A stretch of DNA of 64,000 nt from Myxococcota bacterium (GTDB lineage Bacteria; Myxococcota_A; SURF-8): contig CAXXQS010000001.1 of the NCBI GenBank assembly GCA_963674735.2, forward strand, positions 2,432,001 to 2,496,000, read 5' to 3'. Below the pieces are notes generated by a model. That model saw only the letters and a program-made list of their open reading frames with translations, searched no databases and had not been told where the DNA came from. This document shows positions 2,435-53,930 of this stretch, piece after piece. A program made the translations under genes and the position numbers. The first letter of the stretch is position 1; each line of letters opens with the position of its first letter.

Positions 2435-3793
2435 ATGCAGGCCAAAATCGACCGATTGTCGCCCAAACTCGCGCTGGGCTTGATGCTCGCTATCCTGATT
2501 CTGACCGCCTGCCGCGGCGCTTCCTCGCCCTCCCCGCTCGCGGCCATGAACGACGATCAACGCAGCCGGATCGAAGCTACACTCGACACCTATGAACATC
2601 CCGAGCTGCCCGCCTTGCTGGGCGATGCCTCGCCGCTGGCGCAGCGCCTGTTGAAACACATTCCCGCCAATCTGCACATGCGCATCCGACACGATCCCGC
2701 GCTGGATCTGGTCAGCCATCGCTTCGCCTATCTGGGCGCATCCGAAAGCCGCCTGCCGCCCGACGGCTATGCCCAGTGGGGCCTCTGGCGTTATGGTCGT
2801 AGCGGTCAATATTACTGCGTCAGCTACCGAAGCTCGAAAGGCCGCAGCTTGTCCACCCGGCTGGACCAACACCTGGCGCTACGCGCGGAAAAACTTACCG
2901 ACCTTCTGCAAAAACACCCCGACGGCCACTTCAGCTTCGGTGTCGCCCGCGTCAATTACCAGCTATCGCGCTATGCCCAGGCGGTGCTCGTGGTACAGAA
3001 TAAGCTGCAACTCGATCCGCTAGCCAAATACCCGCAACCGGGTCAACCTTTCACCGTCTCGGGACGCTTCCTGGTCCGCTCCGATCGCTACAACGCCTAT
3101 TTCGAAGGTGACGACGGCGCGATTAACAAGCAACGAATCCATCCCGATCAAGACGGACGTTTTTCCATCACCCTGACCGCCCCCACAAAGCCGGGCCACT
3201 ACCCAGTCGGAATCTGGTATCGCGAACCTGTCACCGGCGCGGAAGAAACACCCGTGTCCGACGCCCGAAACTGGACCCGGCCAGCGCTTTGGCTTCCGAT
3301 TTTCATTGGGATCAGAGAACTGCAAAAACCGACCGTCGCCATCCTGCGCCCACGTGCCAATCCCGCTGATCCGCAGGAATGGATTCAGCGGCTGCTCGAC
3401 AGCACCAATGCGGTCCGACAAGCGAAAGGGCTCAAACCGCTCACCTACGACGCCGAAGCCGCTCAGCTCGCTCAGCAGCAAGTGGAGCATCCCACCTGCG
3501 AGGTCCCATTTGATCCCGATCTGAAAACCAAGTTGGGCTGTAAAGCCTACCAGAGTACCCGCAGCTTCGATCGTTTAGACGAGATGCTGTGGATGAATCG
3601 CAATCGCCCCGGCTACCTGTATAACCTGCTCAAACCGGAAGTCGAACGGATCGCCTTCGCGGTCAAGCCGAATGAAAATGGCGGATTCCATTCGGTGGAG
3701 TATCTGCTGGGTCCAAAAATTGTCGACGAGGACCCCGAGCCCGAACCCGCCAACACACCCGCAGCCGCTCCCGTCGCCGAGCCGCCCGAATAA
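2435..3793 (+). CDS. Putative lipoprotein with C-terminal CAP/SCP-like domain
   Basis: AGGAG RBS; lipobox LTAC; LLDSTNAVRQAKGLKPLTYDAEAAQLAQ...NLLKP resembles CAP domain. Confidence 0.6.
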   Translation: MQAKIDRLSPKLALGLMLAILILTACRGASSPSPLAAMNDDQRSRIEATLDTYEHPELPALLGDASPLAQRLLKHIPANLHMRIRHDPALDLVSHRFAYLGASESRLPPDGYAQWGLWRYGRSGQYYCVSYRSSKGRSLSTRLDQHLALRAEKLTDLLQKHPDGHFSFGVARVNYQLSRYAQAVLVVQNKLQLDPLAKYPQPGQPFTVSGRFLVRSDRYNAYFEGDDGAINKQRIHPDQDGRFSITLTAPTKPGHYPVGIWYREPVTGAEETPVSDARNWTRPALWLPIFIGIRELQKPTVAILRPRANPADPQEWIQRLLDSTNAVRQAKGLKPLTYDAEAAQLAQQQVEHPTCEVPFDPDLKTKLGCKAYQSTRSFDRLDEMLWMNRNRPGYLYNLLKPEVERIAFAVKPNENGGFHSVEYLLGPKIVDEDPEPEPANTPAAAPVAEPPE

Positions 3794-33451: not shown

Positions 33452-33799
33452 TTAACGCGGATGACAAATCTGGCAGGAGCGCGGATCGGGAAAACCCGTG
33501 TCCCCATGAGGAGCATCGTGGCAGTCGGAACAAGGCGTTTCACCGTCATGTCCCGCAGGTGCACCGTTGTTTCCGTGACAGTCGACACAAGTGTAAGATG
33601 GATTGACACTCGGCGTATAGCCGCGCGCAGGGTGGACGTCCTCTTCCGTGTGACAATCCCAGCAATCCGCCTGTTGCCACCCGTCATGATTTGCAGACAA
33701 CTCCACCGACCCGCCGTCGGTCTCGTCGCTGCTACCGCAAGCTACCAAGGTCGAAATAAGAAACACGACCAGTATTAACGCTTTCGCCCCGTGCTTCAT
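33452..33799 (-). CDS. Small tetraheme c-type cytochrome lipoprotein (115 aa)
   Basis: Lipobox LVAC; four CxxCH motifs (CWDCH, CVDCH, CSDCH, CQICH) plus four additional His; GGAG RBS. Confidence 0.85.
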   Translation of the reverse strand: MKHGAKALILVVFLISTLVACGSSDETDGGSVELSANHDGWQQADCWDCHTEEDVHPARGYTPSVNPSYTCVDCHGNNGAPAGHDGETPCSDCHDAPHGDTGFPDPRSCQICHPR

Positions 33800-33863
33800 G
33801 TCAATTCTCCGTCTTCCAATGATGAAAAAGACCCAGGGGTACTCATGCAAAACGGCAGATCGG

Positions 33864-34595
33864 TTAATCGTCCAAAATGTCAGCGGCCTCATCGTTATCC
33901 GCGGCCTCGGGATCCGGTTTGGGCTGTTTCGCTTCCAAATCCCTAACCAGAGCTTGAATTTTCTGGTGAGCCTCGGCATCCAGCTTAATGAACCGCAACC
34001 CGACACCCGTGCTCAGATCCAGTTTTTCGGCAATCAACGGCTGAATCAAGTGCACGACCTTGGCATCAACGCTGATCGGCTCGCCGGCATCCGGTAGTGT
34101 CAACCGCAACGAAACACGTTCATCCCTGTAAGGCGGCGGCGGCCCTTCGATTTTCAGAAACAGCCCACCCTCCGAGAGATTGTCGGTGTGCAAGTCGCCC
34201 AGTTCCGGCAGGTTGGCCACCTGCACCGGCAAATCGATGGGATAGCGGCGCGAACCGTTGCGGCGCGGTCCATCGTACTTCACCATCTCGACCAACCGAG
34301 CGTGCTCGGGATCGACAGCCAAGTGTTTCAAACCGAAACGGAAAATACCCAGGCTCATCTTTCGACCGTGTACCGGACGCCACCAGCGAACTTCGGAAAG
34401 ATAATGGAATTTCTCTCCTTCAAAGGTGATGACCCGCATCGAAACTTCATCGTTCATGTTGAGGCGGTACCGGGTACGCACCTCCATGCCTTCGTTCGAC
34501 AGGTTGGTCATGTATCCGATCTTCTGTTCACCGTTACAGCGAAGCAAAACCTCGAAACGTTTCTGCCAGCGTGGCGAATCACTGCGCCCGTCCAT
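33864..34595 (-). CDS. Tandem PilZ-domain protein
   Basis: RSDSPR..NLSNEGM and RRNGSRR..DNLSEGGLF (RxxxR, D/NxSxxG), GVGLRF. Confidence 0.8.
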   Translation of the reverse strand: MDGRSDSPRWQKRFEVLLRCNGEQKIGYMTNLSNEGMEVRTRYRLNMNDEVSMRVITFEGEKFHYLSEVRWWRPVHGRKMSLGIFRFGLKHLAVDPEHARLVEMVKYDGPRRNGSRRYPIDLPVQVANLPELGDLHTDNLSEGGLFLKIEGPPPPYRDERVSLRLTLPDAGEPISVDAKVVHLIQPLIAEKLDLSTGVGLRFIKLDAEAHQKIQALVRDLEAKQPKPDPEAADNDEAADILDD

Positions 34596-34754: not shown

Positions 34755-36434
34755 TTGACCCAGCCGTTCAATCGCATTACACTCGCCGAGATGTGGACAC
34801 AACACTTCTCAAACACCGCTCACCGGCCAGCTTGGATCGGGCTGGCGGTCATCGTAATCCTGCTAAATGGCTGGATATTCGGAATCTGGACAGCCACCGT
34901 AAGCGCCGCCACCGCCGCCGCAACCGACTCGCCCGCAGAAGCGGAGGCGCAAAAGCTGGTCACGGCCTGGCCCACCGACCAACCGCCCTTCGTCGATTGG
35001 ACTGTCCCGCTTTCATCTCACGTTGCAGGGGAAATCCGACTGGCGATCACCCATCGAACGACCGGCGAACAACTGCAATTGGTACTGCGAGTCCGGGATG
35101 ACAGCCAGCCCGCCTTCGCACGCTCGCAACTCTACAATATTTTTTACTTCTCCACCGCAAAGTCCGCTCACACCTCCCCCGAAGCGGATCGCCTTTTGCC
35201 GCAGGTGAGTATCTGGCTGAAGAAAGTCGAAACCAACCGCACCGCTCTCTTGCCTTACGATGAAGCTCAACGGCGGGCTCAAGAACAGCGAGAAAAAGAG
35301 GAAGCCCGCCAAAAAGTTGAAGCCGAGCGACAACAACGCCGCGACCGCATCGGCATTCAGCGTCTGGTGGCACCGGGAATAGCAAATCGCTTATCTCCTC
35401 AACGCCTGCGCCCCTTCACCGGTCTGCTCGTGCTTGTGCTTTTCCTCTTCTGCCTGCCGCGCGTTCATCGAGCCTTTAAAGTCGTGCGGGGGCTCGAATT
35501 CACGTACATCACCCGCATCGGCGATCCGGCAGGACCGATTCTCGCCCTGCTCTTCGCCATCCGCTACGGCATTTCCTGGACCGGAGCGACCCCGTCCATC
35601 GGCTTATCCGATCCGGTCGGAGCCTGGCTCACCAGCACCAGCTTATTAGCCGCTCCCCATACTTTTTGGGTCGCCGCCATCATTGCAGGAATCTTGACGG
35701 TCCTCGGCGCTTACATGATCGGGATGACGGCCTACGTCGTGTTCGACGATGACCGGATGGCCGGTTTGTCGGCCCTTCTCTATCTGGCTTGGCGCTTGGT
35801 CCAACCAATCGAGTCCGATCAGATTTCCGCCCTGGTCGCCGACGCCGCATTGAGCGCAGGATGGTTGGCGCTGCAACTTCAGATTTTGAGCCATAAAAAC
35901 ACCCCACGCATGTTGCTTGCGGCTCCCCTCTTCGCTCTGGCCGCCTGGGCCGAACCCGCCTACTGGTCCACCTCGATTTTGGGCTTTGCCGCCCTTCTGA
36001 TAGACCCACGCTTTCGTTCTTCGACGGTTTCGTTTCCCATTGCCTGGCTGTTTCCGATCATTACCCTGCTCATGATCGTTCCAGCGGTCTTGAGAGCAAT
36101 TTTGCCTTTGGGTCTGACAGCTCCGGATATGCTGTTTGGCGGCTGGACCTCTCCCATCTGGCCGATCCTGCACAACCATCCGGAAACGATACTATTCGCC
36201 GCTCTGGCCATTTTCTTCGGAGGGACGGCGATCTATAAAGCCATTCACGCCGAACGGGCCACGGCCGTTCTTTTCGTGCTTTTTTATGGAATCTGTTTGA
36301 TCGGAGCCACCGGCTTGGAGGGCTGGCGTACCGACCATCTCCTGGCCGGTCGCAGCATCGTTTTTCCCTGTTGGCTGATCGCGGCGGGACTGATTTCCAT
36401 CATTCACCGCGAGCCCCAATCCGCCACGACCTGA
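34755..36434 (+). CDS. Hypothetical multi-pass membrane protein (N-terminal extracytoplasmic domain + ~10 TM segments)
   Basis: Long ORF with many hydrophobic segments; start uncertain (TTG 34755 or ATG 34791). Confidence 0.6.
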   Translation: MTQPFNRITLAEMWTQHFSNTAHRPAWIGLAVIVILLNGWIFGIWTATVSAATAAATDSPAEAEAQKLVTAWPTDQPPFVDWTVPLSSHVAGEIRLAITHRTTGEQLQLVLRVRDDSQPAFARSQLYNIFYFSTAKSAHTSPEADRLLPQVSIWLKKVETNRTALLPYDEAQRRAQEQREKEEARQKVEAERQQRRDRIGIQRLVAPGIANRLSPQRLRPFTGLLVLVLFLFCLPRVHRAFKVVRGLEFTYITRIGDPAGPILALLFAIRYGISWTGATPSIGLSDPVGAWLTSTSLLAAPHTFWVAAIIAGILTVLGAYMIGMTAYVVFDDDRMAGLSALLYLAWRLVQPIESDQISALVADAALSAGWLALQLQILSHKNTPRMLLAAPLFALAAWAEPAYWSTSILGFAALLIDPRFRSSTVSFPIAWLFPIITLLMIVPAVLRAILPLGLTAPDMLFGGWTSPIWPILHNHPETILFAALAIFFGGTAIYKAIHAERATAVLFVLFYGICLIGATGLEGWRTDHLLAGRSIVFPCWLIAAGLISIIHREPQSATT

Positions 36435-36549
36435 TTAGCAATCAATGTGGCAATTCGGCAACACCGCGACGTCAAGACGGCGACGCTTCCGCTGATTCGC
36501 TATCCATCCGGATCTACAAGGATTTCTTCTTAGAAAGCCCCCAACTATC

Positions 36550-36582
36550 CGCAAGCTTTTCTCGCTTGCGACAAATTTGTCG
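36550..36582. promoter_or_regulatory. Two adjacent palindromes, candidate enhancer (UAS) sites for a sigma54 activator
   Basis: CGCAAGC-N7-GCTTGCG (36550-36570) and perfect CGACAAATTTGTCG (36569-36582), ~70-100 bp upstream of the sigma54-like box. Confidence 0.45.
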
Positions 36583-36648
36583 GTTTACCCCACCCCCCTT
36601 GTTTTCTCGCAAATACCCCAAGCTGCCGTGAAAACTGAAGAACATGAA

Positions 36649-36665
36649 TTGGCATGATTATTGAA
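36649..36665 (+). promoter_or_regulatory. Sigma54-type promoter for small ORF
   Basis: TTGGCATGATTATTGAA = TGGCA-N6-TTGA, -24/-12 spacing. Confidence 0.55.
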
Positions 36666-36720
36666 GAATAAATACGGTATGAATCGGGATTAACGACTTA
36701 TGTTCCCGATGGAGGTAAGC

Positions 36721-36903
36721 ATGACTCTCACAACCGAACTTGAACGCATGCAACGACGTATCGGCCTAACCGGCGATGTCAAGTGGATGAACTTCTACAG
36801 CCGACATTTTCCTTTACACTACGACAAATATGTCCGAACCTTCACCCATCCTCGCGCCGTCAAACGCGTGTGGTTTTACGGAAATCGCTTAAGTATCAAA
36901 TAG
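36721..36903 (+). CDS. Small basic/aromatic hypothetical protein (60 aa)
   Basis: Strong GGAGG RBS 5 nt before ATG; MTLTTELERMQRRIGLTGDVKWMNFYSRHFPLHYDKYVRTFTHPRAVKRVWFYGNRLSIK. Confidence 0.65.
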   Translation: MTLTTELERMQRRIGLTGDVKWMNFYSRHFPLHYDKYVRTFTHPRAVKRVWFYGNRLSIK

Positions 36904-36912
36904 TTGTGCTTA

Positions 36913-36928
36913 TGGCACGCTTCTTTCA
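36913..36928 (+). promoter_or_regulatory. Second sigma54-type promoter, no downstream CDS
   Basis: TGGCACGCTTCTTTCA = TGGCAC-N5-TTTCA. Confidence 0.5.
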
Positions 36929-36938
36929 ATAGCTTATT

Positions 36939-37060
36939 ACCATCTGCAGGGCCCGTGGCGAGTCCTATTTGGTAAGAAAAAGTTTCGATGGTCTTTCCCT
37001 GCAGTATACCCCGATCTGAAAGGCGCGGGGGGGTCCGAGCCTTTCAGACGGGGTATCTTT
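36939..37060 (+). ncRNA. Candidate structured small RNA (unassigned family)
   Basis: CTGCAGGG/CCCTGCAG stem (36944-37004) then 18-bp stem ATACCCCG-a-TCTGAAAGGC / GCCTTTCAGA-CGGGGTAT (37006-37056) with CTTT tail, directly after sigma54-like box. Confidence 0.45.
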
Positions 37061-37190
37061 GTGTCTAACCAATCGCTCTCATGTTGAATCATTCCATTTT
37101 AGAATACCAAAGCGAGATAGCCTTCGCAAAACCTTCCTCTTTTTGCCTGAACGGTATGGCAGAAAGATCGGATGCGACAGGTGTGAGGAC

Positions 37191-38714
37191 TTATTCCGGG
37201 TAGGCTTTCTGACGGAAATACAGAAAGAGGGTCTGGAAGATGGAGAAGACCGGCACCGCCAACAACGCCCCGAAGAGCCCATAGCCGTATTCCCCGGCCA
37301 CCAAGGCGAACACCACCAGAACCGGATGGATATGAGCCGAGGAACCCATGATTTTGGGATTGAGGATATTCGCTTCGATCAGGTGAATGATGACGATCCA
37401 CACGAGGGCCAAAAAGCCGATCATGAACGATTGCGTCAAGCCGATGGCCACCGCCGGAATCGTCGACAAAATCGTGCCGAAGATGGGAATCAGGGAAAAT
37501 ACTGCCGCAATCACAGCCAAAACGACGGCGTATTTGACACCGATGATCGTCAAACCGATTCCGGTCAGCGTGCCGTTAACTAAGCAGATCATCAACTGCC
37601 CACGAATCACTCCACCCAACCCCCGGTCGATGCCGCGTACAACGTCATCGTATTCCTCGCGGTATTTGGGAGGCGTCAACGAGCGGAAAAACTCTTTGAT
37701 TCTCGGCGTATCGATTAAAATGAACGCCGCAAGCATGAACGTCAAGACCAGCGTCATCAGCGAACCGACGACCATACCGACCACATTGCGCCCGAGAACG
37801 AAGGCATCGGCGACCAGCCTTTCACCGGAACTCAACAGATTGTCCAGCTTCTGCTGAACGCGGGACTGCAAATCGAGCGCCCGTTCGCCGCCGGGATTGG
37901 GTATGGTATCAAGCGGCACCAGTTGCAGCTTATAGCTTCCCTCTCCTTTTTGCTCGACCTCGATCGAATAGTTTTCCAGTTTAGCCGCCAACTGGTCCAA
38001 TAGCGGACCCGCCAACGGATCGTCGGGCACGTCCCCCTCCGGAGCAAACTCCGAACCGGGCTGCAAATCCACCTGCATTTCCTCCACTCCGATGTCCTCC
38101 GGTCCCAAAACGATCGGTCGCTTGGTCGGCAACGGCGAAGGAACTTTCTTGTTAACGGAATCGTCCGGATCTTGATCCGATTCCTCTTCCAAAGGACGCT
38201 TGAGATCCTGGAGAAACGACTGCAAACGGTCATTTAGGTCCGGCACCCAGACCTGCGAAGCCTTTCGGAAAATCGTCGGAACATCGTTGGCCATTTTGGA
38301 GAATTCCGAAGCGAAACGCGGCAGCACCAGAAGTGAGAAAACATAAACCCCGATGAGCAAAATGATGTAGATCAGAATGACCGAAATCCAACGCGGCAGA
38401 CGCATCTTTTTTATCCGCCACGCCGACATCCGATCCACCAGCGGAGACACAACGTAGGCGACGACCACCGCCAGAATGAACGGCAGCAGAATGCCGCGAA
38501 CCGCATAGAGCACAATGAGGAAGAAGAGGATGCTCCCCATCCACAAAAAACGCCGTCCCCACTTCCGCACCGCGCTGACCATCCCCAGTGGGTCGGGTTG
38601 CGCGTCGCTCGTTTCGAGTGGAGCTCGCACCTCCGCCGTTTGTACGTCGGGTTCATCGACGGACGGCGTAGACGAGGGCGCTTTCGACGGATTTTCGGGG
38701 TTATCTGTACTCAT
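37191..38714 (-). CDS. AI-2E family transporter with large soluble insertion
   Basis: PFILAVVVAYVVSPLVD, GVIRGQLMICLVNG, SLIPIFG, EANILNPKIMG, IHPVLVVFAL, GALLAVP; start overlaps carB stop. Confidence 0.88.
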   Translation of the reverse strand: MSTDNPENPSKAPSSTPSVDEPDVQTAEVRAPLETSDAQPDPLGMVSAVRKWGRRFLWMGSILFFLIVLYAVRGILLPFILAVVVAYVVSPLVDRMSAWRIKKMRLPRWISVILIYIILLIGVYVFSLLVLPRFASEFSKMANDVPTIFRKASQVWVPDLNDRLQSFLQDLKRPLEEESDQDPDDSVNKKVPSPLPTKRPIVLGPEDIGVEEMQVDLQPGSEFAPEGDVPDDPLAGPLLDQLAAKLENYSIEVEQKGEGSYKLQLVPLDTIPNPGGERALDLQSRVQQKLDNLLSSGERLVADAFVLGRNVVGMVVGSLMTLVLTFMLAAFILIDTPRIKEFFRSLTPPKYREEYDDVVRGIDRGLGGVIRGQLMICLVNGTLTGIGLTIIGVKYAVVLAVIAAVFSLIPIFGTILSTIPAVAIGLTQSFMIGFLALVWIVIIHLIEANILNPKIMGSSAHIHPVLVVFALVAGEYGYGLFGALLAVPVFSIFQTLFLYFRQKAYPE

Positions 38715-41916: not shown

Positions 41917-43017
41917 TTACCTATACTGCGCCAGGATGCGCGCGAAATCGTCGAACAGGTATTCGGTATCCACGGGGCCCGGGGCCGCTTCGGGATGGAA
42001 CTGAACCGAGAAGAAGGGCCGCGACCGATGCCGGATGCCCTCGTTGGTGCCGTCGTTGATGTTGACAAACCAGGTGTCCCAGTCGCTCGGGATGGTTTCG
42101 TCGTTGACGGCGTAGCCGTGGTTCTGGCTGGTAATGACGCAACGGCGCGAAACCAGATCCTGACACGGCTGATTCTGCGAACGATGGCCGTATTTCAATT
42201 TGTAGGTATCGGCTCCGGCCGCCAGCGACAGCACCTGGTTACCCAGGCAAATGCCGAAAATCGGTTTATCACCGGCCAGCAAGGCCTTGACCTGATGCAC
42301 CAGCGGCTGAACGTTTTTCGGGTCGCCCGGACCGTTGGACAGCAGCACGCCGTTGTAGTCTTGCTCCACCGCCAGCAGATTGGTACTCCAGGGAACCCGG
42401 TGCACCGTGATGCCGCGTTTGAGCAGATGGCGGATGATATTGAGTTTCACGCCGCAATCGACCACCAAGACGCTCAGATCGCCCGCCGGATACGTCACGA
42501 TTTCCCGGCACGAAACCTCGGGAACCACTTGATCCTCGGGAAGCGTGGTTTTGGCGGGAACGGTTTCATCAACATCCGCCGCCACGATGGTCCCGCGCAT
42601 GGTGCCGTATTCGCGTAGTTTTCGTGTCAGGGCGCGCGTGTCGATGCCCTCTATGCCCGGAACTCCCGCCTCCGCCATCCAGTTTTGCAAACTGCTCGAT
42701 GCCGTGCAGTGACTGTAGCCGGGGGACGCCTCGGAGACTACCAACCCCAGCACCTTGAGTCCGTCCGACTCATACGGGCCATTGATGGGATCTTCGGGAT
42801 CGGGAGCCGGAACTCCGTAATTCCCGATCAGGGGGGATGTCATCACTAAAATCTGGTTCGTGTAGGAGCAATCGCTGAAAGACTCCACATAACCGGTCAT
42901 CCCGGTATTGAAGACGACCTCTCCACACACGTCCCGGTCGGCTCCAAAGCCGACGCCGTGAAAGACACTTCCGTCTTCCAGAACTAATTTCCTCGGTTTC
43001 CCAGTCAGCGGGGTCAC
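41917..43017 (-). CDS. carA: Carbamoyl-phosphate synthase small subunit
   Basis: GEVVFNTGMTGY, GIDTRALTR, LSNGPGDP, FGICLG, SQNHGYAV, QFHPE; likely GTG start at 43017 after GGGAG. Confidence 0.95.
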   Translation of the reverse strand: MTPLTGKPRKLVLEDGSVFHGVGFGADRDVCGEVVFNTGMTGYVESFSDCSYTNQILVMTSPLIGNYGVPAPDPEDPINGPYESDGLKVLGLVVSEASPGYSHCTASSSLQNWMAEAGVPGIEGIDTRALTRKLREYGTMRGTIVAADVDETVPAKTTLPEDQVVPEVSCREIVTYPAGDLSVLVVDCGVKLNIIRHLLKRGITVHRVPWSTNLLAVEQDYNGVLLSNGPGDPKNVQPLVHQVKALLAGDKPIFGICLGNQVLSLAAGADTYKLKYGHRSQNQPCQDLVSRRCVITSQNHGYAVNDETIPSDWDTWFVNINDGTNEGIRHRSRPFFSVQFHPEAAPGPVDTEYLFDDFARILAQYR

Positions 43018-43192
43018 GTCGTTGTCTCCCTCTCGTCTACTTGTCGATAGAGGTGGGCGCACCCACCATTGTGATCGGGGCCTATGGGTACCACAGCCGG
43101 AACGCTTGGGCAAGCACAAAGCACAGCCAGCTATCGTTTCTGTCAGAACGACACGACCGTGCCTGCGTGACAGCCCCCCTAATCGAGGGTTA

Positions 43193-45172
43193 TCACACGC
43201 TTTCCGATTTATCAAGCTCGGGATGCTGAAAAGGCTCGGGAGTCGGTTTTCCGATGAGACGAAGCGTAATCGCCAACACCCCCAAAGCCAAAAGATAGGA
43301 AACCGGCGGTGGCAACCAACCCGCGAGGCCATATCCCAAAGCGACGGCCACCAACCCAACCACGACGGCATAGGGAAGTTGCGTGCGGACATGGTCGATA
43401 TGATCGCAGCCCGCGGAAATCGACGACATGATGGTCGTATCCGACAGGGGCGAACAGTGGTCGCCGAAAATCGAGCCATCCAACACGGCTCCCACGCTGA
43501 TGATCATGAGGGGCAAGCCGCCGACATGGTACGCCAGCGGAACAGCCGCAGGCAAAAGCACGGCCATGGCCCCCCAACTCGATCCGGTTGCGAAACTGAT
43601 GGCGGCGCCGAGAAGAAAAATCAGCACCGGCACCCAAAACGGCGAAAGCGTGCTTCCAAGAGCGGCCACGAGGTAGGCTCCGGTCCCCAATTCGCCATTG
43701 AGATCGCCGATCGCCCAAGCCAGAATCAAGACGGAAAAAGCCAGCAATAACACACGCCAAGAGGACAGCCAGGCCAACACCAGACGTCCGAACGGTGCAC
43801 GTCCGGCTGCTACGCCTCCGATAAGCGCGACCCCCGTCCCTAAAAGAGACGCCATGGCCAACACCCAGGCCCCATCCTGACAGGCAATCAGGTAGTTGCC
43901 CTCCAGTTGCACCAACCGTCCCCAATCGAACGTGGTCCAGGCCGCCGTATTAACGTACCAAGGCCCCAGTAGACCCGCGCCGTTGGCGGCCATGCCGACC
44001 AACACCGCCCCGATCACCGTCAACACCGGCAGAAGTGCGTTGAGCGCCAAAGGCCGCCCCAGGATTTCGGGTCGTTTGGCCCCCGATAACGGTTGAGCGC
44101 CGGGACGCAGCAGTTGACCGGTTGTAGCCGCCCGTATCTGTGCGGTATACATCGGGCCGAACTCACGACGCATGATGATGGTCAACCACACAAACACCAG
44201 CGCCAGAATGCAATAAAAGCGGAAAGGCAAAGCTTGGATGAAAAGCGCATAGGCCGATTCGGTCATTTTCAGTTCCCGCATGGCATCGCCGATCAGGCTG
44301 ACTTCATAGCCGATCCAAGTGGAAATCAAAGCCAGACCGGCCACCGGAGCGGTGGTGCTGTCGACCAGATAAGCCAGTTTTTCACGCGAGATACGCGCCC
44401 GGTCGGCCAGTGGACGCATGGAACCGCCGACCACCACCGTGTTGGAATAGTCGTCGAAAAAGACGGCCAACCCCAGAAGCACCGTCGCCGCCTGGGTGGA
44501 ACGCGCCGAGCGGGCCAGCCGTCCCAAGGCGTCGGCCAAACCCTGCATCCCACCGCTGGCCACCGCCACATTGACGATACCGATCAAGGAAAAGGTGAAC
44601 AAAAAGATATATAGGCGAAAGTCGTCCACCATCACCATCGCCAGTCGCCCAATACCGCCCGCGCTTGCCCCCTTGACCACGCCCCACAAGCTTGGATCAC
44701 CGGACGCCAAAGCCGCCCCGAGCGCCACACCGGCCAAAAGCGAGACGATCAAACGCCGCGTCGCCATAGCCAAAGTCACCGCCAAAAGAGCCGGAAGCAA
44801 GGAAGTCCAGTGAATCCGTACAGTTGAAGCCGTAACGGGCTTGATTTCCGGCCCCTGGAGTTCCGCCGTCAATCGCCAGCCATCCCGGCTCAGTAAAAGG
44901 GTACAGTCCGAATGTAGTGGATCACCCGCTCCCAACGGGCCTCGCGCAGCAAAGGCCGAGGCCATCGGTAAAAAAACCCGCCCGTGTGCCTCCTGCTTGC
45001 ACAGATAACGGCCGATAGAGCCTGAAGCGGCCGCGGCTTGGCTCAATGCGTCATACAAACGGTCCGCATCGGCTTTGCCCCGACTTGTTTCATCGACCGG
45101 CAGCATCGCCAGAACGAGAATCACCCCCAATCCCACCAGCAGAGCCCACACCGCCCGAATTTTAAAGCTCAT
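43193..45172 (-). CDS. Na+/H+ antiporter NhaC-family protein with N-terminal extension
   Basis: FFDDYSN, SREKLAYLVDSTTAP, ISTWIGYE, SFATGSSWG, GDHCSPLSDTTIMSS, HIDHVRTQLPYA. Confidence 0.88.
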   Translation of the reverse strand: MSFKIRAVWALLVGLGVILVLAMLPVDETSRGKADADRLYDALSQAAAASGSIGRYLCKQEAHGRVFLPMASAFAARGPLGAGDPLHSDCTLLLSRDGWRLTAELQGPEIKPVTASTVRIHWTSLLPALLAVTLAMATRRLIVSLLAGVALGAALASGDPSLWGVVKGASAGGIGRLAMVMVDDFRLYIFLFTFSLIGIVNVAVASGGMQGLADALGRLARSARSTQAATVLLGLAVFFDDYSNTVVVGGSMRPLADRARISREKLAYLVDSTTAPVAGLALISTWIGYEVSLIGDAMRELKMTESAYALFIQALPFRFYCILALVFVWLTIIMRREFGPMYTAQIRAATTGQLLRPGAQPLSGAKRPEILGRPLALNALLPVLTVIGAVLVGMAANGAGLLGPWYVNTAAWTTFDWGRLVQLEGNYLIACQDGAWVLAMASLLGTGVALIGGVAAGRAPFGRLVLAWLSSWRVLLLAFSVLILAWAIGDLNGELGTGAYLVAALGSTLSPFWVPVLIFLLGAAISFATGSSWGAMAVLLPAAVPLAYHVGGLPLMIISVGAVLDGSIFGDHCSPLSDTTIMSSISAGCDHIDHVRTQLPYAVVVGLVAVALGYGLAGWLPPPVSYLLALGVLAITLRLIGKPTPEPFQHPELDKSESV

Positions 45173-52778: not shown

Positions 52779-53930
52779 TCAGGTTTCGTCAATCGGTTCC
52801 AGTTCTTCGAGCTCCTGCGTTGGGTCGTCGGCCATATCCTCTACATTATCGAGAGGTTCGATCTCTTCCAATTCTTCGGCTTCCCTATCGGGTTTGCCGG
52901 TTTCCGCTTCAGCGCCGGATGGTGTTTGCGACACCACGACCAAAGCCGCTCGGATCAGGCGATCGTGCAGAAAGTAACCTTTCTGAAATTCTTCCACCAC
53001 CTGGTTGGACTCGACTTCCACGGTCTCCCGTACGGAAATCGCCTGGTGTTTGGTCGGATCGAATACACGCCCCAGACTTTCAACCGAACGTACCCCGGAT
53101 TTCTTCAAGATTTCACGGATCTGGCGATAGATCATCTGAACGCCTTCGAGCAGCGTATTGAAATCTTTCGACTGTTCCAGATGTGCCAAAGCTCTTTCGA
53201 AATTGTCCATCACCGGCAGAAGTTGCTTGAGCAACTCCTCGTTGACGAACCGTTGATGCTCTTCCCGTTCTCGGACCGTGCGCTTTTTGAAGTTATCGAA
53301 ATCGGCCATCACACGCAACAACCGTTCGTAATTCTCATCCGCTTGCTTCTGATCGGCTGCGACCGTCTCTCCCGTTTCCGACTTTTCCACCGGCTCGACG
53401 GGTTCCGGATCTTCTTCCTCGATCTCGATCTCGCTCTCCGTATCGAATATCTCGGCCAAACCGGTCATCGGCTGGGCGGGCGGCTCGTCGTTAATGGCCT
53501 CCATAATTGGCGGCACCACAGGCGACGTCGCGGACAGCAAAACTTCGCTATCCAGAATGTCATCCACGACCTCGAAGTCATCTTCCGAGTCGCCTTCATC
53601 CTCGACCCGACTTTGTAGATCACCGACACCGAGAGGCAATTCAGCCGGCATGTCGCCCCTTTGGAAGTCTTTGTCCTCCAATTTCCGGCCGGTCAGTTCT
53701 TCTGCGATGTCATCCCTGAGCGATTCGAAGGCATGGGCTTGATCGTCATCGGACGGTTCGTTCTCGGGTGGGGTTGGTTGAGTCTTACGAGAAATGGCTT
53801 TATCGGCATCTTCCAAGGCCATATTGATGGCCGAAGCCAACGAATCGAGATCGGAAAAATGTTCGTCCACGCTTTCGAGATTTATCGGGGAGCCTTTCGG
53901 CCTCTGTTTTTTCGATTGACTCACCTGCAC
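52779..53930 (-). CDS. grpE: Nucleotide exchange factor GrpE with long acidic N-terminal extension
   Basis: RVMADFDNFKKR, LLPVMDNFERAL, FDPTKHQA, QKGYFLHDRLIRAALVVV; GGAGGA RBS before GTG 53930. Confidence 0.92.
   Translation of the reverse strand: MQVSQSKKQRPKGSPINLESVDEHFSDLDSLASAINMALEDADKAISRKTQPTPPENEPSDDDQAHAFESLRDDIAEELTGRKLEDKDFQRGDMPAELPLGVGDLQSRVEDEGDSEDDFEVVDDILDSEVLLSATSPVVPPIMEAINDEPPAQPMTGLAEIFDTESEIEIEEEDPEPVEPVEKSETGETVAADQKQADENYERLLRVMADFDNFKKRTVREREEHQRFVNEELLKQLLPVMDNFERALAHLEQSKDFNTLLEGVQMIYRQIREILKKSGVRSVESLGRVFDPTKHQAISVRETVEVESNQVVEEFQKGYFLHDRLIRAALVVVSQTPSGAEAETGKPDREAEELEEIEPLDNVEDMADDPTQELEELEPIDET

Follow-up and report, generated by a model that had tools for sequence, protein, structure and literature searches.

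A new family of small basic proteins encoded with a small RNA behind tandem sigma-54-type promoters in an uncultured order of Myxococcota

Introduction

Within a 64,000-nucleotide (nt) stretch of a Myxococcota genome (GenBank assembly GCA_963674735.2, contig CAXXQS010000001.1, forward-strand positions 2,432,001 to 2,496,000; hereafter the window), a first-pass annotation made from the letters alone had drawn attention to positions 36,550 to 36,903, which it read as an enhancer and a sigma-54 promoter in front of a gene for a 60-amino-acid (aa) basic protein, possibly RNA-binding or toxic and partnered with an RNA downstream. Our comparison of this locus with its relatives shows that the open reading frame (ORF) is a genuine gene of a new small protein family, and that it is kept together with two sigma-54-type promoters and a downstream small RNA (sRNA). 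We consider it somewhat better than an even bet (probability about 0.55) that the basic protein and the sRNA are co-controlled by sigma-54 promoters through one activator and that the protein is likely to bind nucleic acid.

The comparison covers seven intact loci, namely the window itself (genome G000), the genomes G001, G003, G006, G008 and G009, and the metagenome contig L048. The order to which the window belongs comprises ten genomes (G000-G009), and every genome considered here was assembled from metagenomes. The window, G001, G003 and L048 represent loci related at the family level and are referred to below as the four family-level loci.

Results

A small protein gene under purifying selection

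The ORF occupies positions 36721 to 36903 on the plus strand and is identified as a gene by its homologues, its ratio of non-synonymous to synonymous substitution rates (dN/dS), its stop-free frame and its Shine-Dalgarno site. It has 60 codons, starts with the ATG at 36721, ends at 36903 and is preceded by a GGAGG Shine-Dalgarno sequence at 36711-36715. The window's own gene call, the sole match of a word-indexed protein search, is 67 aa long and begins at an upstream ATG at 36700; since the GGAGG lies between the two ATG codons, 36721 is favoured as the start. All seven intact loci have a Shine-Dalgarno site upstream of the start and a frame free of stops, and the other five frames contain stops in all cases except one (frame r2 of G003).

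The substitution pattern is that of a protein-coding sequence. Over a conserved core of 34 codons, the congeners G006 and G009 differ at nine synonymous and no non-synonymous positions; dN/dS of the same core is 0.17 between G001 and G003, and 0.25 and 0.31 between the window and G001 and G003, respectively, which gives a range of 0 to 0.31 among close pairs, distant pairs being saturated at synonymous sites. Variable sites at the first, second and third codon position (of 34 each) number 9, 12 and 20 in the trio of window, G001 and G003, and 0, 0 and 9 in the two congeners. The ORF is a real gene under purifying selection. The presence of such a reading frame, as proposed by the first-pass annotation, is therefore confirmed, and so are the relatives under selection, with a conserved sigma-54-type box and a downstream RNA, by which that annotation had suggested checking it.

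A protein family restricted to a narrow lineage

Clear homologues were found by six-frame search in five other genomes of the order (G001, G003, G006, G009 and G008), so that six of its ten genomes carry the ORF; it was not found in G002, G004, G005 and G007, which are 86%, 93%, 79% and 95% complete. A profile search of 401 sampled genomes of the phylum returned eight matches at E up to 0.01, and the six strong ones (E 4e-31 to 6e-25) all fall within the window's order; among strong matches there is none outside it. Two weak matches, in G208 and G221 (E 0.007-0.009), were judged to be due to chance, the first being interrupted by a TGA codon and the second lying within a 594-aa frame. Against 1.84 billion representative proteins, a HMMER profile search gave eight matches at E up to 0.001. 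Seven of these are family members of 59-86 aa in clusters of one to three members from one or two contigs each; four of the family's protein clusters are further metagenomic clusters beyond the genomes of the order, and no source gives a name to any of the seven. The eighth match (P0010), a 328-aa repeat protein, was judged spurious, and no fused or longer form of the family is among the matches. The seventh intact locus comes from the metagenome contig L048.

Searches against reference collections gave no relatives. The 60-aa protein matches no Pfam family at E up to 1, none of ten family members matches NCBIfam, one of ten matches PHROGs at an E-value of just 0.11, the best match among PDB sequences has an E-value of 1, and a search of the ESM Atlas by features yielded nothing usable. 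Judged by sequence comparison, the protein is a new small family, unlike the known families in Pfam, NCBIfam, PHROGs and the PDB sequences.

The window protein has an isoelectric point (pI) of 10.7, a net charge of +8 and 17% aromatic residues. The ten members are uniformly basic, with pI 9.5-11.6 and a net charge of +4 to +12, and aromatic residues make up 15-22% of each; they are also hydrophilic (grand average of hydropathy, GRAVY, -0.46 to -1.11), with neither a membrane helix nor a conserved cysteine. Y26, L32, Y34, D35, F52 and Y53 are invariant across the members. An AlphaFold2 model from a 10-sequence alignment has a mean predicted local distance difference test score (pLDDT) of 52 and a predicted template modelling score of 0.22; it places a helix at residues 3-16 and a hairpin at 49-58, with the core 18-41 below pLDDT 50. 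The Atlas model of the homologue P0009 has a pLDDT of 0.48, and its structural neighbours form a mixed list that we disregarded. With regard to established RNA-binding proteins, the window's genome (94% complete) yielded no Hfq; it does have a gene for CsrA, at another position.

Tandem sigma-54-type promoters and an enhancer site inside the gene

The sigma-54 consensus is TGGCAC-N5-TTGC, with GG at -24 and GC at -12 at fixed spacing. Such promoters have an activator site about 70-150 nt upstream, to which a cognate AAA+ enhancer-binding protein binds, and transcription starts 12 nt downstream in dependence on RpoN and ATP hydrolysis by the activator. The window's genome encodes RpoN (one Sigma54_DBD match, G000:C1:1192923-1193399, 216.6 bits).

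The box noted by the first-pass annotation in front of the ORF, here called P1 (TGGCATGATTATTGA, 36650-36664, plus strand), proved to be a sigma-54-type motif present in seven of seven loci, 55-92 nt before the start codon. In the window it reads TGGCAT-N5-TTGA (GG-N10-GA), with GG at -24 and GA rather than the consensus GC at -12; GC stands at this position in five of the seven orthologous promoters, for example in the perfect TGGCATAAGGTTTGCA of G006, and the window and G003 have TTGA. The predicted transcription start lies near 36676. A simple scan of positions 36000-37600 detected no sigma-70-like site. Across the 64 kb of the window, the expression TGGCAYN5TTKM has two plus-strand matches, at 36650 and 36913 and thus both at this locus, against 1.04 expected, so that the count by itself is not significant. 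What raises these features above chance is their conservation: P1, the Shine-Dalgarno site, the open frame, the site within the ORF and the second promoter recur in all seven intact loci.

Two palindromes upstream of P1 had been proposed as enhancers, and only the second of them holds up. This predicted enhancer site, upstream activating sequence 1 (UAS1; CGACAAATTTGTCG, 36569-36582, plus strand), contains the palindrome CGACAAA/TTTGTCG and lies 80 nt upstream of P1, a distance that is similar (about 80 nt) in G001, G003 and L048. The core reads GACA-N4-TGTC and in most cases extends to CGACA-N4-TGTCCG. The first inverted repeat, CGCAAGC-N7-GCTTGCG (36550-36570, plus strand; arms 36550-36556 and 36564-36570, from the inverted-repeat scan), is specific to the window, the alignment of the four family-level loci retaining just a short GCAA there, and it probably stands outside the control system. 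Nor is conservation seen for the hairpin in the 5' untranslated region (ATCGGGA/TCCCGAT, 36683-36710, plus strand; arms 36683-36689 and 36704-36710), which abuts the GGAGG: it is present in the window, where the 60-nt leader has a folding energy of -12.7 kcal/mol, and the relatives' leaders (29-67 nt) share no hairpin conserved in position or sequence.

A second copy of the enhancer site, UAS2 (CGACAAATATGTCCG), lies with an adjoining block (TTTCCTTTACA) inside the ORF (36808-36836, plus strand; codons F30-R39). Its GACA begins at 36823 within codons Y34-R39, 90 nt upstream of a second sigma-54-type promoter, P2 (TGGCACGCTTCTTTC, 36913-36927, plus strand; TGGCAC-N5-TTTC in the window), which itself begins 9 nt after the stop codon. 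UAS2 and P2 are both present in the seven intact loci, with the variant GACATGAATGCC in G008, and from its position UAS2 would serve P2. The block TTT CCT TTA CA. TAC GAC AAA ... GTC uses one codon per conserved residue across the loci that share it, including TTA for leucine in seven of seven loci, and outside it two to four synonymous codons are in use per residue. Since synonymous positions are frozen there, these codons are under constraint as DNA in addition to protein. That the ORF seems to carry the enhancer site of the next promoter was missed by the first-pass annotation.

The genome G004 provides a natural dissection of the locus. It keeps UAS2, P2 and the sRNA and has lost P1, the ribosome-binding site and the frame; the decayed copy of the ORF (L044 about 1560-1760; G004:C1, minus strand) has an in-frame TGA, indels and no P1. 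As the UAS2 block is retained there without the frame, it is evidently kept for the RNA promoter and not for the protein, and as the RNA outlasts the decayed ORF, the RNA is independent of the protein.

A small RNA coupled to the gene

A conserved sRNA of about 120 nt is predicted at 36940-37063 on the plus strand. In its first stem 36944-36951 is paired to 36997-37004, enclosing the invariant CCCGTGGCGAGTCC, and a terminator hairpin follows at 37008-37054, with a loop of seven G (37027-37033) and a T-rich tail. Nine of 22 predicted pairs show changes on both sides, with compensatory support for the first stem; an unpaired CCCGTGGCG(A/G)GTC is invariant, and the terminator loop has six or seven G at every locus. 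An Rfam scan placed the RNA in no family. The covariance model finds one copy in seven of the ten genomes of the order, which are the six with the ORF and G004, and the RNA is also present in L048. Its coupling to the ORF, suggested by the first-pass annotation, is borne out as genetic linkage in all seven intact loci.

The stretch from the stop codon (36903) to the RNA contains no conserved terminator, the only strong one being that at 37008-37062, and the transcript from P1 should therefore run on to the terminator of the RNA. The RNA lies downstream of the ORF on the same strand, is not antisense to it and contains no repeats. Control of ORF translation by the RNA in cis finds no support, as duplexes between the RNA and the region around the start codon are not stronger than those of shuffled controls (z -0.84 to +1.36, seven loci). 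Besides, complements of 10-12 nt to the invariant part of the RNA (GACTCGCCACG(G)) occur in the window's genome at G000:C2:1638239, C2:877368, C2:576176 and C1:2276925, where they overlap a ribosome-binding site or start codon or lie a little upstream of one, and could represent putative targets.

A regulon defined by the enhancer site

In the window's genome GACA-N4-TGTC occurs 136 times and a sigma-54-like expression 616 times, and six pairs have the site 60-125 nt upstream of the motif, compared with about 0.53 expected. All six are spaced 76-98 nt. For five relatives we used the combined pattern GACA-N4-TGTC-N58-88-TGGCWYN5YTKC with the reversed pattern as control, and obtained 17 matches versus 0. 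The enrichment upstream of sigma-54 motifs, in the window's genome as well as in the relatives, upholds the reading of the second palindrome as an enhancer; on these sequence statistics GACA-N4-TGTC behaves like a sigma-54 activator site and is a putative binding site.

Two of the six pairs belong to the window's own locus, at P1 and P2 (pair C1:2468823). The other four stand before a radical SAM gene followed by Cys-rich secreted repeat proteins (C1:153834), a 664-aa VWA lipoprotein (C2:528788), a 284-aa Cys-rich secreted protein (C2:1903654) and a gene for a 222-aa protein with a CarboxypepD_reg protein (C2:1091676), which is located directly downstream of an activator gene. Many of these regulon products carry long acidic linkers rich in DGD. 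In the relatives, five of the 17 matches are the cassette's own sites. Of the other 12, seven stand before genes whose products combine a signal peptide or lipobox with an acidic DGD-rich linker, including a G003 VWA protein, an orthologue in kind of that in G000, and beta-propeller lipoproteins (G003, G008); the rest comprise one PMT_2 membrane protein, one S58 peptidase and three cases with no convincing ORF call. As the other site-bearing promoters drive genes for secreted proteins and lipoproteins of this type, the cassette looks like the cytoplasmic arm of the regulon.

Some further observations concern the surroundings of such sites. On L048 the genes flanking the cassette encode Cys-rich lipoproteins whose linkers are rich in DGD (105-1205 and 2466-3173), of the same class as in the regulon of G000, and a receiver-only response regulator is encoded beside it (2051-2449). 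Two different contigs of G001 (L062 and L065, from G001:C30 and C55) contain near-identical stretches of about 90 nt with a GACAAGCATGTC site and a sigma-54-like motif, which may be a repeated element.

A candidate activator

There is no activator gene within the window. Elsewhere in the genome, G000:C2:1089888-1091672 (L028 2888-4669) encodes a protein with FHA, GAF, Sigma54_activat, AAA_lid and HTH_8 domains. A perfect palindrome, CCGACATTAATGTCGG, begins 3 nt past its stop codon, and a consensus sigma-54 promoter, TGGCACCGTTTTTGC, follows 98 nt beyond the palindrome. Based on this gene position, the FHA-GAF-AAA+-HTH protein appears to be the best candidate for the regulator. Full-length orthologues with 60-75% identity are found in all ten genomes of the order, so that their distribution is uninformative. 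In G003, G004 and G008 the orthologue is followed by the site, or a GGCA-N4-TGTC variant of it, together with a sigma-54 motif; in G001 the promoter alone follows, and after the orthologues of G002, G005, G006, G007 and G009 neither site nor promoter was seen. In the literature searched we found no paper on an FHA-GAF enhancer-binding protein in Myxococcus.

Other genes in the window

Apart from the cassette, a small protein with four CxxCH motifs (33452-34006, minus strand) looks like a tetrahaem cytochrome c, with no Pfam match at E up to 1e-5, and its gene adjoins that of a two-domain PilZ protein (33864-34595). In their longest frames, GrpE (52782-53930, minus strand; 383 aa, domain at residues 184-335) and the small chain of carbamoyl-phosphate synthase (41920-43479, minus strand; 520 aa, domain from residue 165) have long N-terminal extensions, and the true starts of both may lie further in.

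Discussion

Our data are best explained by a cassette in which a basic protein of a new family and a small RNA share one control circuit. In this model, the activator encoded at G000:C2:1089888-1091672 would act on the GACA-N4-TGTC site upstream of P1, and one signal would give rise to two products: a long transcript from P1 comprising the ORF with the sRNA as its 3' end, and a short transcript from P2 consisting of the RNA alone. The cassette would then form the cytoplasmic regulatory arm of a regulon of envelope or secreted proteins. Composition and genetic linkage make nucleic-acid binding the protein's most probable activity, with RNA a likelier target than DNA, and the protein would act in the same response as the sRNA, in the manner of the peptides of dual-function sRNAs. 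The first-pass annotation, whose palindromes, box, leader hairpin, ribosome-binding site and ORF are all found in the sequence or by the inverted-repeat scan where it had placed them, is partly supported by this outcome.

Several points weigh against this explanation. Transcription starts, translation and sigma-54 dependence are predictions, and the dinucleotide at -12 departs from GC in both promoters, being GA in P1 of the window and of G003 and TC in P2 of six of the seven loci. Only the four family-level loci have a clear UAS1, which was not confidently identified in G006, G009 and G008. A simple scan detects two weak terminator-like hairpins, at 36853-36870 and 36905-36919, ahead of the RNA, neither of which is conserved. 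With respect to the regulator, the orthologue of the candidate activator is present in all ten genomes, four of which are without the ORF, and the window's genome has about 20 paralogous activators. Concerning the protein, the six invariant residues are aromatic or aliphatic plus one Asp and none of them is basic, and neither the AlphaFold2 model of the window protein nor the Atlas model of the homologue yields a fold. Finally, the case of G004, with the RNA but without the protein, weakens the idea of a dedicated RNA partner. A bolder version of the model, which we regard as rather doubtful, casts the protein as a lineage-specific chaperone or RNA-binding partner, produced from the same sigma-54-driven transcript as the RNA it serves in a clade with no Hfq detected, the whole forming a self-contained regulatory module. 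The coding sequence would in that case double as the enhancer of the RNA promoter, and a single activator would set the ratio of protein to RNA.

The most serious competitor, although still unlikely in our view, is that the protein acts on a protein target and shares only its regulation with the RNA; it might modulate an enzyme, a transporter or the activator, or affect how the acidic, DGD-rich proteins of the regulon are secreted. The invariant aromatic and hydrophobic residues together with Asp35 fit a packed interface better than a purely electrostatic one, the RNA of G004 is independent of the protein, and the regulon products are extremely acidic while the protein is strongly basic. On the other hand, the neighbourhood indicates no partner, as the flanking genes vary between loci with the one exception of a weakly similar upstream membrane protein in G000 and G003 (29% identity), and the signal peptides of the regulon proteins would limit any contact to their precursors. 

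We give little credence to the view that this is a small factor that binds or bends DNA and feeds back on the regulon's own sigma-54 promoters, for example by aiding the loop between enhancer and promoter. A small, basic and aromatic-rich protein that is co-induced with promoters needing an enhancer-promoter loop of 76-98 nt would suit such a function; however, it has no likeness to known architectural proteins, and G004 keeps four site-promoter modules without it.

That the ORF is non-functional, with the region conserved as enhancer of the RNA promoter and the frame incidental to it, is very improbable. This idea draws on the fact that the best conserved stretch of the ORF coincides with the UAS2 DNA block, where synonymous sites are frozen, and that this block survives in G004 without a frame. 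Nevertheless, substitutions outside the block are overwhelmingly synonymous (9 to 0; dN/dS 0.17-0.31), frame, start codon and Shine-Dalgarno site are kept in seven of seven loci where other frames carry stops, and the ORF has a promoter of its own, P1. The loss of the frame in G004 went along with decay of P1 and the flanking codons, as expected if these serve the protein.

Type I toxin-antitoxin systems combine a small hydrophobic membrane peptide with an antisense or complementary RNA. The suggestion of the first-pass annotation that the protein may be toxic, and hence a type I or type III pair of small toxic protein and adjacent RNA antitoxin, has in its favour that a small protein adjoins a structured RNA, and yet we find it hardly credible, given a hydrophilic protein with no membrane helix (GRAVY values as above), an RNA that is encoded downstream on the same strand rather than antisense, contains no repeats and pairs with the ribosome-binding region at the level of shuffled controls, two single-copy chromosomal genes, and a genome, G004, that keeps the supposed antitoxin without the toxin.

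In the context of known systems, the preferred model of a co-controlled protein and sRNA is closest to dual-function sRNAs, in which both products serve one response. SgrS is such an sRNA and encodes the small protein SgrT, which shares just its regulation with SgrS. SR1, as presented in the part of the source available, is likewise a dual-function sRNA that also encodes a small protein, SR1P (PMC3526287). Our locus resembles both in its compact layout, with an ORF 5' of a structured RNA and a common terminator, provided that the long transcript is made as proposed. It differs in that the RNA has its own promoter and enhancer and can be made without the ORF, in its control by sigma-54 and an enhancer-binding protein, and in a protein sequence unrelated to the known peptides.

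To our knowledge, Pxr of Myxococcus xanthus is the one described sigma-54-dependent myxobacterial sRNA. Its gene presumably sits between nla19 and a NADH dehydrogenase gene, and we take its SL1/SL2 sequence to be conserved. According to the sections of the report at hand, Pxr is an sRNA of about 110 nt with multiple stem-loops, a predicted sigma-54 promoter and an enhancer-binding site, and pxr follows directly downstream of the activator gene nla19 in a 262-nt intergenic region for which those sections give no small ORF (PMC5568312). By description and gene context, to the extent of that text, the two cases agree in phylum and in having a sigma-54-type sRNA of similar size, and they differ in that the enhancer here lies within a protein-coding gene and that the gene of the candidate activator is located in another part of the genome. 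GlnZ (from glnA) and CJnc230 of Campylobacter are, in the excerpts of the respective papers, sRNAs from the 3' end of sigma-54-dependent mRNAs that are released by processing (PMC9731577, PMC11187230). An sRNA at the 3' end of a sigma-54-controlled mRNA would also result from our proposed long transcript; as far as those excerpts go, the distinguishing features are a dedicated second sigma-54 promoter 9 nt past the stop codon and an enhancer within the coding sequence.

In the case of MicL and DapZ, promoter elements of the sRNA overlap the upstream protein gene, and mRNA and sRNA share a terminator. In contrast, the site discussed here is an enhancer embedded in codons whose synonymous positions are frozen, and the host ORF encodes a 60-aa protein that would be under the same candidate activator. 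With Hfq, CsrA and ProQ/FinO the protein shares a similar size class and its basic character, it is unlike them by Pfam scan, and its own RNA binding is putative. What sets the locus apart from these systems is the combination of tandem sigma-54-type promoters, each with a copy of the predicted enhancer, an enhancer in codons and a protein of no known family. No description of a sigma-54-driven cassette of small protein and sRNA was found in the literature searched for those terms.

The locus adds a new family to the small proteins and offers a clear natural case of doubly constrained codons, which specify a protein and at the same time the enhancer site for the next promoter. It also suggests that this uncultured order of Myxococcota has a small sigma-54 regulon comprising secreted acidic lipoproteins, one small protein, one small RNA and a candidate activator. 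Because its components are short and its motifs defined, reconstruction of the entire circuit in a laboratory host would be feasible. If it is true that the protein binds the sRNA, it would represent a new kind of sRNA partner in bacteria in which no Hfq was found.

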